Below are positions 51,001 through 54,000 of a DNA stretch of 64,000 nucleotides, one piece after another. The stretch comes from Escherichia coli (GTDB lineage Bacteria; Pseudomonadota; Gammaproteobacteria; Enterobacterales; Enterobacteriaceae). Numbering within the stretch: position 1 is the stretch's first letter; the number at the start of each line of letters is the position of its first letter. The position numbers are program-made. The stretch lies in the NCBI RefSeq assembly GCF_048403405.1, contig NZ_CP183129.1. The stretch is one strand, 5' to 3'.

Positions 51001-54000
51001 TTCCTGAGAGGATGATCTGCGCCCAATATCCTGAGCCGGAACTTTGCTGCAATGAAGGCCAACGAAAAATGGGGGAGTATGTTATAGAGTACTTGCTACA
51101 GGGTAAAAAGAGGTACCTGTCGCTGGTTCTCCGTTTAGTTTAACCGGGAGATTTTCTCCTGCGCCTGTCATAAAGTCCGGTAATGGAGATTGTTAATACG
51201 ATGGTGCACGATGCATTGCCAGTGCCCGGCCCGGAGGATGCCCCGTAGCTACATACGGATCAGGGTTGGCAATATCGAATGGCAGGCTATAGGCAAAGTT
51301 AAAGCCCCATGGAGTAGCACAAAATATGCCGCACAAAGGAAACGGTCTGAATAACGCAGTGATGGAGAACTTCTTCGGCACACTGCAAAATCGCATCGTG
51401 GTCGATCGCTAATTCGTCGTGAATCACTGAACGATGTTCCATGCGAACAGATATTCGATCATATCGAAATATTAAACATTACCCCTCCCCATATTGGGCA
51501 AAAAAAAACAAAAAACGATCAATTAACGATCAATTAGTATTGATTCACATAATCTCTCATCATTAATGAGAACATTGTCACATATTTACAATATAGAAGT
51601 GTTACTTTTAGCAAGCTGTTAGTAACCAACTGTTACTAATAATTTTAATTCTTAATACTTTGTTCATTCAATAAATGAGTTGAGAGAATATATGAATAAA
51701 ATATACTCCCTTAAATATAGTGCTGCCACTGGCGGACTCATTGCTGTTTCTGAATTAGCGAAAAGAGTTTCTGGTAAAACAAACCGAAAACTTGTAGCAA
51801 CAATGTTGTCTCTGGCTGTTGCAGGTACAGTAAATGCAGCAAATATTGATATATCAAATGTATGGGCGAGAGACTATCTTGATCTTGCACAAAATAAAGG
51901 TATTTTCCAGCCCGGAGCAACAGACGTAACAATCACTTTAAAAAACGGAGATAAATTCTCTTTCCATAATCTCTCAATTCCGGATTTTTCTGGTGCAGCA
52001 GCGAGTGGCGCAGCTACCGCAATAGGAGGTTCTTATAGTGTTACTGTTGCACATAACAAAAAGAACCCTCAGGCCGCAGAAACTCAGGTTTACGCTCAGT
52101 CTTCTTACAAGGTTGTTGACAGAAGAAATTCCAATGATTTTGAGATTCAGAGGTTAAATAAATTTGTTGTGGAAACAGTAGGTGCCACCCCGGCAGAGAC
52201 CAACCCTACAACATATTCTGATGCATTAGAACGCTACGGTATAGTCACTTCTGACGGTTCAAAAAAAATCATAGGTTTTCGTGCTGGCTCTGGAGGAACA
52301 TCATTTATTAATGGTGAATCCAAAATCTCAACAAATTCAGCATATAGCCATGATCTGTTAAGTGCTAGTCTATTTGAGGTCACCCAATGGGACTCATACG
52401 GCATGATGATTTATAAAAATGATAAAACATTTCGTAATCTTGAAATATTCGGAGACAGCGGCTCTGGAGCATACTTATATGATAACAAACTAGAAAAATG
52501 GGTATTAGTCGGAACAACCCATGGTATTGCCAGCGTTAATGGTGACCAACTGACATGGATAACAAAATACAATGATAAACTGGTTAGTAAGTTAAAAGAT
52601 ACCTATAGCCATAAAATAAATCTGAATGGCAATAATGTAACCATTAAAAACACAGATATAACATTACACCAAAACAATGCAGATACCACTGGTACTCAAG
52701 AAAAAATAACTAAAGACAAAGATATTGTGTTCACAAATGGGGGAAATGTCCTGTTTAAGGATAATTTGGATTTTGGTAGCGGTGGTATTATCTTTGACGA
52801 AGGCCATGAATATAACATAAACGGTCAGGGATTTACATTTAAAGGAGCAGGAATTGATATCGGAAAAGAAAGCATTGTAAACTGGAATGCATTGTATTCC
52901 AGTGATGATGTTTTACACAAAATAGGCCCCGGTACTCTGAATGTTCAAAAAAAACAGGGGGCAAATATAAAGATAGGTGAAGGAAATGTTATTCTTAATG
53001 AAGAAGGAACATTTAACAATATATACCTTGCAAGCGGAAATGGTAAGGTAATACTAAATAAAGATAATTCCCTTGGCAATGATCAATATGCGGGGATATT
53101 TTTTACTAAACGTGGTGGCACGCTAGATTTAAATGGACACAATCAGACTTTTACTAGAATTGCCGCCACTGACGATGGAACAACAATAACTAACTCAGAT
53201 ACAACGAAAGAAGCCGTTCTGGCAATCAATAACGAAGACTCCTACATATATCATGGGAACATAAATGGCAATATAAAACTAACGCACAATATTAATTCTC
53301 AGGATAAGAAAACTAATGCAAAATTAATTCTGGATGGTAGTGTCAACACAAAAAATGATGTTGAAGTCAGTAATGCCAGTCTTACCATGCAAGGCCATGC
53401 AACAGAGCATGCAATATTCAGAAGCACAGCGAATCATTGCTCCCTGGTATTTCTTTGTGGAACGGACTGGGTCACCGTTTTGAAAGAAACAGAGAGTTCA
53501 TATAATAAAAAGTTCAATTCTGATTACAAAAGTAATAATCAGCAGACCTCATTTGATCAGCCTGACTGGAAAACCGGGGTGTTTAAATTTGATACATTAC
53601 ACCTGAACAATGCTGACTTTTCAATATCACGCAATGCCAATGTTGAAGGAAATATATCAGCAAATAAATCAGCTATCACAATCGGCGATAAAAATGTTTA
53701 CATTGATAATCTTGCAGGGAAAAATATTACTAATAATGGTTTTGACTTCAAACAAACTATCAGTACTAATCTATCCATAGGAGAAACTAAATTTACAGGT
53801 GGCATCACTGCACATAACAGCCAAATAGCCATAGGTGATCAAGCTGTAGTTACACTTAATGGTGCAACCTTTCTGGATAATACTCCTATAAGTATAGATA
53901 AAGGAGCAAAAGTTATAGCACAAAATTCCATGTTCACAACAAAAGGTATTGATATCTCCGGTGAACTGACTATGATGGGAATCCCTGAACAGAATAGTAA

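Follow-up and report, generated by a model that had tools for sequence, protein, structure and literature searches.

A probable compound insertion sequence scar between iutA and sat in an Escherichia coli virulence island

The iutA-sat interval and the sat-bearing segment

The DNA analysed here (the window) is a 64,000-nucleotide stretch of the E. coli contig NZ_CP183129.1 (assembly GCF_048403405.1). It shares 99.98% identity with strain DA33137 and contains the gene set nan, ag43, aerobactin, sat, and iha; its island is GI-pheV, a virulence island of uropathogenic E. coli (UPEC). GI-pheV has been described as a set of modules separated by insertion sequences, in which shiF-iucABCD-iutA-sat constitutes one module (PMC11537424). 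The interval considered below runs from the iutA stop at 50741 to the sat start at 51692, and all features with an assigned strand are on the plus strand.

The 3' flank of iutA (50742–50970) forms the end of the aerobactin module and is common to other aerobactin loci. The only notable terminator-like site is a hairpin of 18 pairs within this flank (50768–50809). Homology to the flank extends to 50889 in ColV-type plasmids (megablast), to 50958 in LR-31, where a different IS66-type end follows, and to 50972 in the O111 strain 2012C-4606; the sequence that follows in O111 strains is presumably an IS629-like end. A 46-bp stub (50971–51016) begins where the flank ends and runs from GTAAGCGTCGTCTCAGCACCGTCTGGCA to AATTCCTGAGAGGATGAT. 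This stub is the left terminal repeat region of an ISEc22-like element of the IS66 family. It matches 34 of 35 nucleotides across the left end of the annotated ISEc22 of strain H32 (locus L010, 3004–3038), comprising seven flank nucleotides, which include the single mismatch, and the first 28 nucleotides of the IS, with AAATTCCTGAGAG next. Furthermore, ten other IS66 ends in the window and the compared loci show a GTAAGCG..CCGT pattern, to which the stub conforms. No matching 8-bp target duplication was found for the stub. The stub is 8 bp longer in the CFT073-type allele (54 bp vs 46 bp). At 51016/51017 it passes directly into a piece of IS3-family DNA (51017–51393), and the two are referred to below as the scar.

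Past detectable IS3 homology lies a 39-bp tail (51394–51432). The tail is common only to the O157-type copy of the scar described below and does not significantly resemble the 3' part of the intact IS. The next 58 bp (51433–51490) are the left edge of the sat-bearing segment; in shuffle tests, neither the IS3 3' part nor pet upstream regions, the O157 locus, or IS1 resembled them significantly. Two assignments for this stretch were considered and rejected as not significant: a decayed IS1 end (CATTACC; 207/1000 and 288/1000 shuffles) and, for 51394–51490, the diverged pet-type upstream DNA suggested by MAFFT (476/500 shuffles). The G+C content of 51433–51691 is 29%, compared to 49% for the scar. 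A SPATE-type upstream and promoter region (51491–51691) shares 84–87% identity with pet upstream regions on pAA plasmids, and a CRP-like site, TGAGAACATTGTCACA, can be read at 51567–51582 that may act as the CRP site of sat. Expression of Sat, Pet, and SigA is activated by CRP with Fis as a co-activator (PMC9387333). Because the pet-homologous region starts at 51491, the sat promoter probably lies in the SPATE-derived segment and not in the scar. The sat gene itself, which encodes the serine protease autotransporter toxin, occupies 51692–55579.

The sat-bearing segment spans 9,153 bp (51433–60585; breakpoints 51432/51433 and 60585/60586) and contains sat, a hypothetical gene, nested IS66 copies, a transposase fragment, and an IS2-like element of the IS3 family (59257–60586) that PGAP annotates as a frameshifted IS3 family transposase. 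The IS2 name is presumed from the terminal sequences of this element. The segment and the IS2-like element have their right end in common, as homology to EC2 and O157 restarts exactly there, at 60586. The 9.15-kb segment stands in place of a 2.3-kb segment, designated X, of EC2- and O157-type islands.

The IS3-family orfB fragment and its parent element

Six-frame reading of the interval yields a plus-strand frame at 51299–51412 that reads LKPHGVAQNMPHKGNGLNNAVMENFFGTLQNRIVVDR up to a stop and includes an ATG-initiated ORF of 28 amino acids (51326–51412). The frame carries a DNAxxExFFGTLK block, with the catalytic E codon at 51365–51367, and the KGNGLNNAVMENFFGTLQ block of the ORF corresponds to the region around the catalytic E of IS3-family OrfB. 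In OrfB proteins of this family, this block carries the E that completes the DDE triad as its third catalytic residue. A tblastn alignment pairs the frame with MSRKGNCLDNAVMENFFGTLK of intact IS3-family OrfB, with KGNGLNNAVMENFFGTLQ matched by KGNCLDNAVMENFFGTLK. Taken alone, the 28-amino acid ORF matches NCBIfam NF033516 (IS3 family transposase) with E=0.0013 (profile positions 305–329 of 369), a weak match that correction for all the small ORFs in 64 kb would eliminate. The IS3-family identity is nonetheless decisive because the surrounding sequence matches too. The three frames joined over 51013–51393 match NF033516 with E=3e-22 (profile positions 202–328 of 369); tblastn with intact OrfB recovers, between 51010 and about 51395, three pieces that are collinear but each in a different frame (E=4e-31); and about 378 bp of DNA are 86–87% identical to intact IS elements (E~1e-125), with nucleotide identities over 51017–51393 of 87.3% to a Salmonella salamae plasmid (NZ_CP022140) and 86.3% to a Citrobacter braakii plasmid (NZ_CP077406). 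These results bear out the preliminary description of a short frame with an IS3 OrfB motif and of a remnant of an IS3-family transposase lying between iutA and sat. The reconstructed fragment scores 79 bits against NF033516, below the 160-bit full-length cutoff because the fragment is truncated, and matches Pfam rve with E=1.3e-4, so that a DDE transposase (OrfB) with an rve integrase core is recognised.

The feature is a fragment of IS150-like orfB in three frames (51017–51393), equivalent to IS positions ~886–1262 of ~1447, or 26% of a parent-type element, and to OrfB residues 84–212 of 261. It had been described as a C-terminal remnant; with the last ~49 residues (the Pfam rve_2 region) absent, it is an internal piece instead. 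The extent first given for it, 51300–51412, captured the best-preserved 3' end of a feature about 3.4 times longer. PGAP annotates nearly the same stretch (51016–51391) as a DDE-type pseudogene, DLJ64_RS29675, which is frameshifted, contains an internal stop, and lacks the N- and C-termini. Compared to the intact IS, the fragment has five indel events (51076, 51131, 51162, 51290, and 51386–7), three in-frame stops (51136–8, 51171–3, and 51246–8), 27 non-synonymous changes, and nine synonymous changes. The first catalytic D has become Y (51078–80), while the second is retained (51258–60) and the E of the triad is recognisable. Judged against the intact IS, the substitutions look neutral.

Similarity to orfA was found nowhere in 50400–51800. 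Around the fragment there is no matching pair of inverted repeats, only short pairs at chance level, and no similarity to the ends of the Citrobacter relative (TGGACTGCACCCC...) was found. A longer remnant was considered in both directions and rejected. On the 5' side of 51013, both similarity to the IS 5' part (430/500 shuffles) and an orfA match are absent. On the 3' side, an extension to ~51490 was suggested by RESLNDVPCEQIFDHIEILN, which looks like an OrfB tail by eye; the NF033516 alignment ends at GTLQ, the tail has no Pfam match, and the local alignment to the IS 3' part is equalled or exceeded by 464 of 500 shuffles.

The intact element on the Citrobacter plasmid (locus L003, ~1616–3062) is an unnamed IS150-like member of the IS3 family of ~1447 bp. 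Its orfA (L003 1634–2191) encodes two HTH domains (HTH_28 matches), its orfB encodes HTH_21, rve, and rve_2/rve_3 domains and scores 330 bits against NF033516, and an AAAAAAG (A6G) slippery site is located at L003 2137. The terminal repeats are TGGACTGCACCCCAAAAGTTGGACA, which we take to resemble the end of IS150. The parent element may belong to the IS150 group of the IS3 family. The window holds a fragment and not an element, since it lacks the orfA and A6G frameshift site that are present in this 86%-identical intact relative. Near-intact copies of the parent IS are present in 15 of 5,426 E. coli genomes.

Copies, arrangements, and a crossover in the scar

The 420-bp unit at 51013–51432 falls into two allele classes in 5,426 complete E. 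coli genomes: a window type (at least 95% identity; 753 genomes) and an O157 type (80–90% identity; 664 genomes). The contiguous order iutA-scar-sat is found in 714 genomes and the scar-sat junction in 723, and sat without the scar was not found among the matches listed. The O157-type scar is located in the iha/ter island of O157:H7, 2.7 kb upstream of iha, where it is also annotated as a DDE-type pseudogene and has neither iutA nor sat beside it. The window and O157 copies are 87% identical and have in common the fusion point (TGAT followed directly by CTGCGCCC), four frameshifting indels relative to the intact IS, and the same end of IS homology plus ~39 further bp. The O157 copy is preceded by GTAAGCGTC-N12-TCTGG in a 73-bp stub that is a probable, more diverged IS66-type left end, an assignment resting on GTAAGCGTC and TCTGG at the conserved spacing, with ~63% identity over the first 27 nucleotides.

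Since the fusion point, the truncations, and the four indels are common to both copies, a single compound scar that was already dead is likely to be ancestral to them, and the two would have diverged by 13% since this common ancestor. Because the same compound scar is present in the O157 iha/ter island, it predates the iutA-sat junction. Two observations count against this explanation. The two islands have different DNA at the outer (left) side of the IS66 stub despite the common internal fusion, although a stub of 46–73 bp should not be capable of transposing. In addition, identity between the islands is 87% for the scar but 99% for the nearby iha region, such that scar and iha do not have one simple common history. 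A scan of species-representative genomes for the fusion junction returned no donor outside E. coli. The only matches were three contigs in metagenome-assembled genomes (MAGs) labelled Collinsella and Bacillota; these contigs are presumably mis-binned, as they are 97.7–99.6% identical to the compared E. coli loci.

A third arrangement, iucABCD-iutA-scar-X-iha without sat, occurs in 19 genomes (EC2 and 18 others including EAEC 55989), and its 2.3-kb X segment is also found in O157. Across 154 informative sites, EC2 is of the window type up to 51401 and of the O157 type from 51406; two isolated sites and, in the stub, an 8-bp block of the CFT073 type depart from this two-part pattern. A clean crossover thus maps to 51402–51405 in the 19 sat-less genomes, an interval that falls within the 39-bp tail (51394–51432). 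The EC2-type genomes are most simply read as products of recombination between the two island types through a single crossover in the scar; alternatively, the EC2-type arrangement could resemble the ancestor. The scar adjoins the iha side in all three arrangements and therefore marks the border of the iha-side segment. Aerobactin adjoins the outer end of the IS66 stub. To the right of the scar, the sat segment has been inserted or has replaced other DNA. It is possible, although we hold this only tentatively, that the scar is a portable old joint of UPEC GI-pheV and O157-type iha/ter islands that has repeatedly been the site of the left-hand crossover in exchanges of cargo upstream of iha (the 9.15-kb sat segment for the 2.3-kb X). 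If so, the presence or absence of Sat in aerobactin- and iha-positive lineages would be set in part by homologous recombination at a dead IS fragment.

Origin of the scar and comparison with known elements

The reading that best accounts for the locus, and that we consider very probable, is a non-functional compound IS scar in which a piece of IS3 orfB was fused to an ISEc22-like stub, decayed neutrally, and now forms a passive module border. An IS150-like IS3-family element would have lost its orfA, the first third of orfB, the C-terminus, and both ends, and the fusion of 51017–51393 to 50971–51016 would have arisen most simply by a deletion from inside the IS66 element into the IS3 element. 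Neutral decay would then have introduced the frameshifts and stops and removed the first catalytic aspartate. As it stands, the compound scar is predicted to encode no product and to be immobile. The only role that can be demonstrated for it is passive: it separates the aerobactin module from the iha-side part of the island and supplies a few hundred bp of homology where related islands can recombine. The proposed order of events is that the scar arose once, in the ancestor of the UPEC GI-pheV-type and O157 iha/ter-island copies, and came to be positioned upstream of the X-iha segment; aerobactin would later have come to adjoin the outer end of the IS66 stub, and in the window lineage the 9.15-kb sat segment with its IS2-like right border would have replaced X.

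The preliminary description instead had the aerobactin and sat modules joined by IS-mediated events at the IS3 remnant, that is, by transposition of the IS3 element itself or by an IS-mediated deletion that left the remnant in place. The underlying module boundary is real: aerobactin-locus homology ends at 50958–50972, homology to pet and SPATE upstream regions begins at 51491–51495, and the remnant and other IS debris lie exactly between, in an island described as modules parted by insertion sequences (PMC11537424). However, the truncated fragment, complete with its IS66-stub fusion and four frameshifts, is already dead in the O157 iha/ter island, where it borders on neither iutA nor sat, and it also occurs in the sat-less iutA-scar-X-iha genomes. 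Neither module is abutted by an IS3 terminal repeat, as the contact with the iutA flank is made by an IS66-family left end, and the sole rearrangement that can be mapped inside the scar is the homologous crossover of the 19 sat-less genomes, not a transposition. Joining by the IS3 element is consequently unlikely, and the shared scar appears to refute it largely. Enclosure of sat between IS66 ends has also been weighed, since the left end at 50971 is correctly inverted relative to a right end at 58999 and 50971–58999 (stub, IS3 fragment, and sat, up to the next IS66 right end) could be an IS66-bounded composite unit transposed downstream of iutA. The 8-bp target duplication is absent, however (CCTTACAA vs ACGCACCT), the fusion of stub and IS3 fragment occurs without sat in two other arrangements, and the sat-specific segment in fact extends on the right to 60585 and not just to 58999. 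Such a unit is scarcely credible.

A present-day function, either as a small protein (the 28-amino acid ORF or an antisense 47-amino acid ORF) or as part of the sat regulatory region, is suggested by the location of the scar upstream of sat and by its 99–100% conservation among 726 genomes. The antisense ORF is moreover annotated in several RefSeq genomes, appearing as the hypothetical protein WP_011076574.1 in CFT073-type genomes. This conservation, however, equals that of the whole recently spread module, which shows fewer than 10 SNPs in 13.9 kb in ST131 (PMC11537424), and neither ORF is preceded by a Shine-Dalgarno-like sequence. The neutral-looking changes described above likewise argue against a conserved product, NR341 tolerates a scar interrupted by an IS66 insertion, and the pet-homologous promoter region starts about 100 bp past the fragment end. 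Promoter prediction at the junction gave three sites compared to 2.9 expected from shuffles, and an Rfam search of the junction gave no match above noise. A functional role is therefore highly improbable, and the antisense 'hypothetical protein' annotation is flagged as spurious.

Debris of insertion sequences is expected at the module borders of pathogenicity islands. The feature is ordinary and already known, since GI-pheV has been described and the pseudogene is already in the RefSeq annotation. The additions made here, which are of minor specialist interest, are the compound nature of the scar, its common ancestry with the O157 copy, the exact breakpoints, and the crossover. The breakpoints of 51433–60585 and the crossover at 51402–51405 can be used as markers for the assembly and exchange of sat, aerobactin, and iha in UPEC, EAEC, and STEC islands.

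Among known elements, the closest to the fragment are the IS elements of the Citrobacter and Salmonella plasmids, which encode the same OrfB residues as the window, including the HTDQGWQY and DNAVMENFFGTLK blocks. In contrast to the window, the plasmid IS has orfA, the frameshift site, the terminal repeats, and the C-terminal rve_2 region, while the window fragment has the indels and stops and has lost the first catalytic D. The nearest named relative of the parent IS is ISKpn1, with 75% nucleotide identity. The stub is identical to the left end of ISEc22 over its first 28 nucleotides and the next block is conserved; unlike the full ISEc22, it comprises only 46 bp and lacks tnpA/B/C and the right end. 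The PGAP pseudogene annotated as a DDE-type integrase/transposase/recombinase (DLJ64_RS29675 in DA33137 and A4C38_RS32785 in the O157:H7 strain 3384) is the same feature, but the entry gives no IS family, no IS66 stub, and no indication that the UPEC and O157 copies are alleles of one scar. Finally, GI-pheV's shiF-iucABCD-iutA-sat module (PMC11537424) is the same locus as that in the window. In contrast to the single-module view, the iutA-sat portion is composite, as seen in the scar, the unequal extents of homology, and the sat-less EC2-type arrangement.

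Insertion Sequences at the 3' Boundary of iutA

The region immediately 3' of iutA (window 50958–50972) contains three distinct IS ends lying no more than 15 bp apart, each of which occurs in a different lineage. The window lineage carries an ISEc22-like stub at this boundary, E. coli LR-31 carries another IS66-type end (L009, the LR-31 locus, 5318), and O111 strains carry an IS629-like end (L011, the locus of O111 strain 2012C-4606, ~4059). This clustering may reflect an insertion hot spot, or it may reflect a single old boundary at which one IS end has replaced another in turn. 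LR-31 also contains an ISL3-family element (L009 3871–5189) at the iutA terminator hairpin region, which takes the place of approximately 61 bp of window sequence (50772–50832).

Variation and Distribution of the Scar

The scar that separates iutA from sat, an IS3-family orfB fragment fused to the ISEc22-like IS66 stub, differs between lineages. Eight base pairs of the stub (GATCCTGA) are missing at window 50998 and are kept in CFT073/ST131-type genomes. The lineage that lacks these 8 bp is that of the window, with DA33137 and MS 69-1 among its 10 members of 100% identity, and the difference is a possible lineage marker. In E. coli NR341 the scar is interrupted by ISEc23, an IS66-family element (L012, the NR341 locus, 5398–7929) flanked by an 8-bp target duplication equivalent to window 51298–51305, and this insertion places iutA and sat 2.5 kb apart. 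An antisense ORF of 47 amino acids lies within the IS3 scar (window 51299–51442, minus strand) and is annotated in CFT073-type genomes (ABU 83972, NR341) as the "hypothetical protein" WP_011076574.1. The sequence upstream of this ORF has no Shine-Dalgarno-like motif, and the call is almost certainly spurious.

The scar junction is also matched in three contigs (L016, L017, and L018) from MAGs labelled "Bacillota bacterium" and "Collinsella sp." These contigs are presumably mis-binned E. coli DNA, as they are 97.7–99.6% identical to the compared E. coli loci. L017 carries the scar type of the O157 iha/ter island and L018 the window type, while L016 looks like the sat-less EC2-type chimera. A separate class of fragments from the same IS lineage as the orfB fragment (positions 17–807, the 5' half; ~95% identical) tops the partial matches in E. 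coli genomes, with at least 15 animal, environmental, and human isolates among the matches listed. These fragments have no relation to the scar in the window, and their annotation reads "helix-turn-helix domain-containing protein".

Flanking Elements and Divergence of iutA

Nested IS66-family elements are found 3' of sat (window 56373–58999), where the left end of the first is at 56373 and the second (56460–58999) is placed 87 bp into it. These are followed by an IS2-like element (~59257–60586), the right end of which is the exact breakpoint at which homology with the iha-upstream DNA of the EC2 and O157 types restarts.

On the opposite side of sat, iutA (window 49900–50741) and the junction share only 94.6% identity with the window in many sat-positive genomes of the ST131 type, whereas identity exceeds 99% over the scar and sat. 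The lower identity over iutA plus the junction fits the iucD/iutA recombination tract that has been reported (PMC11537424).
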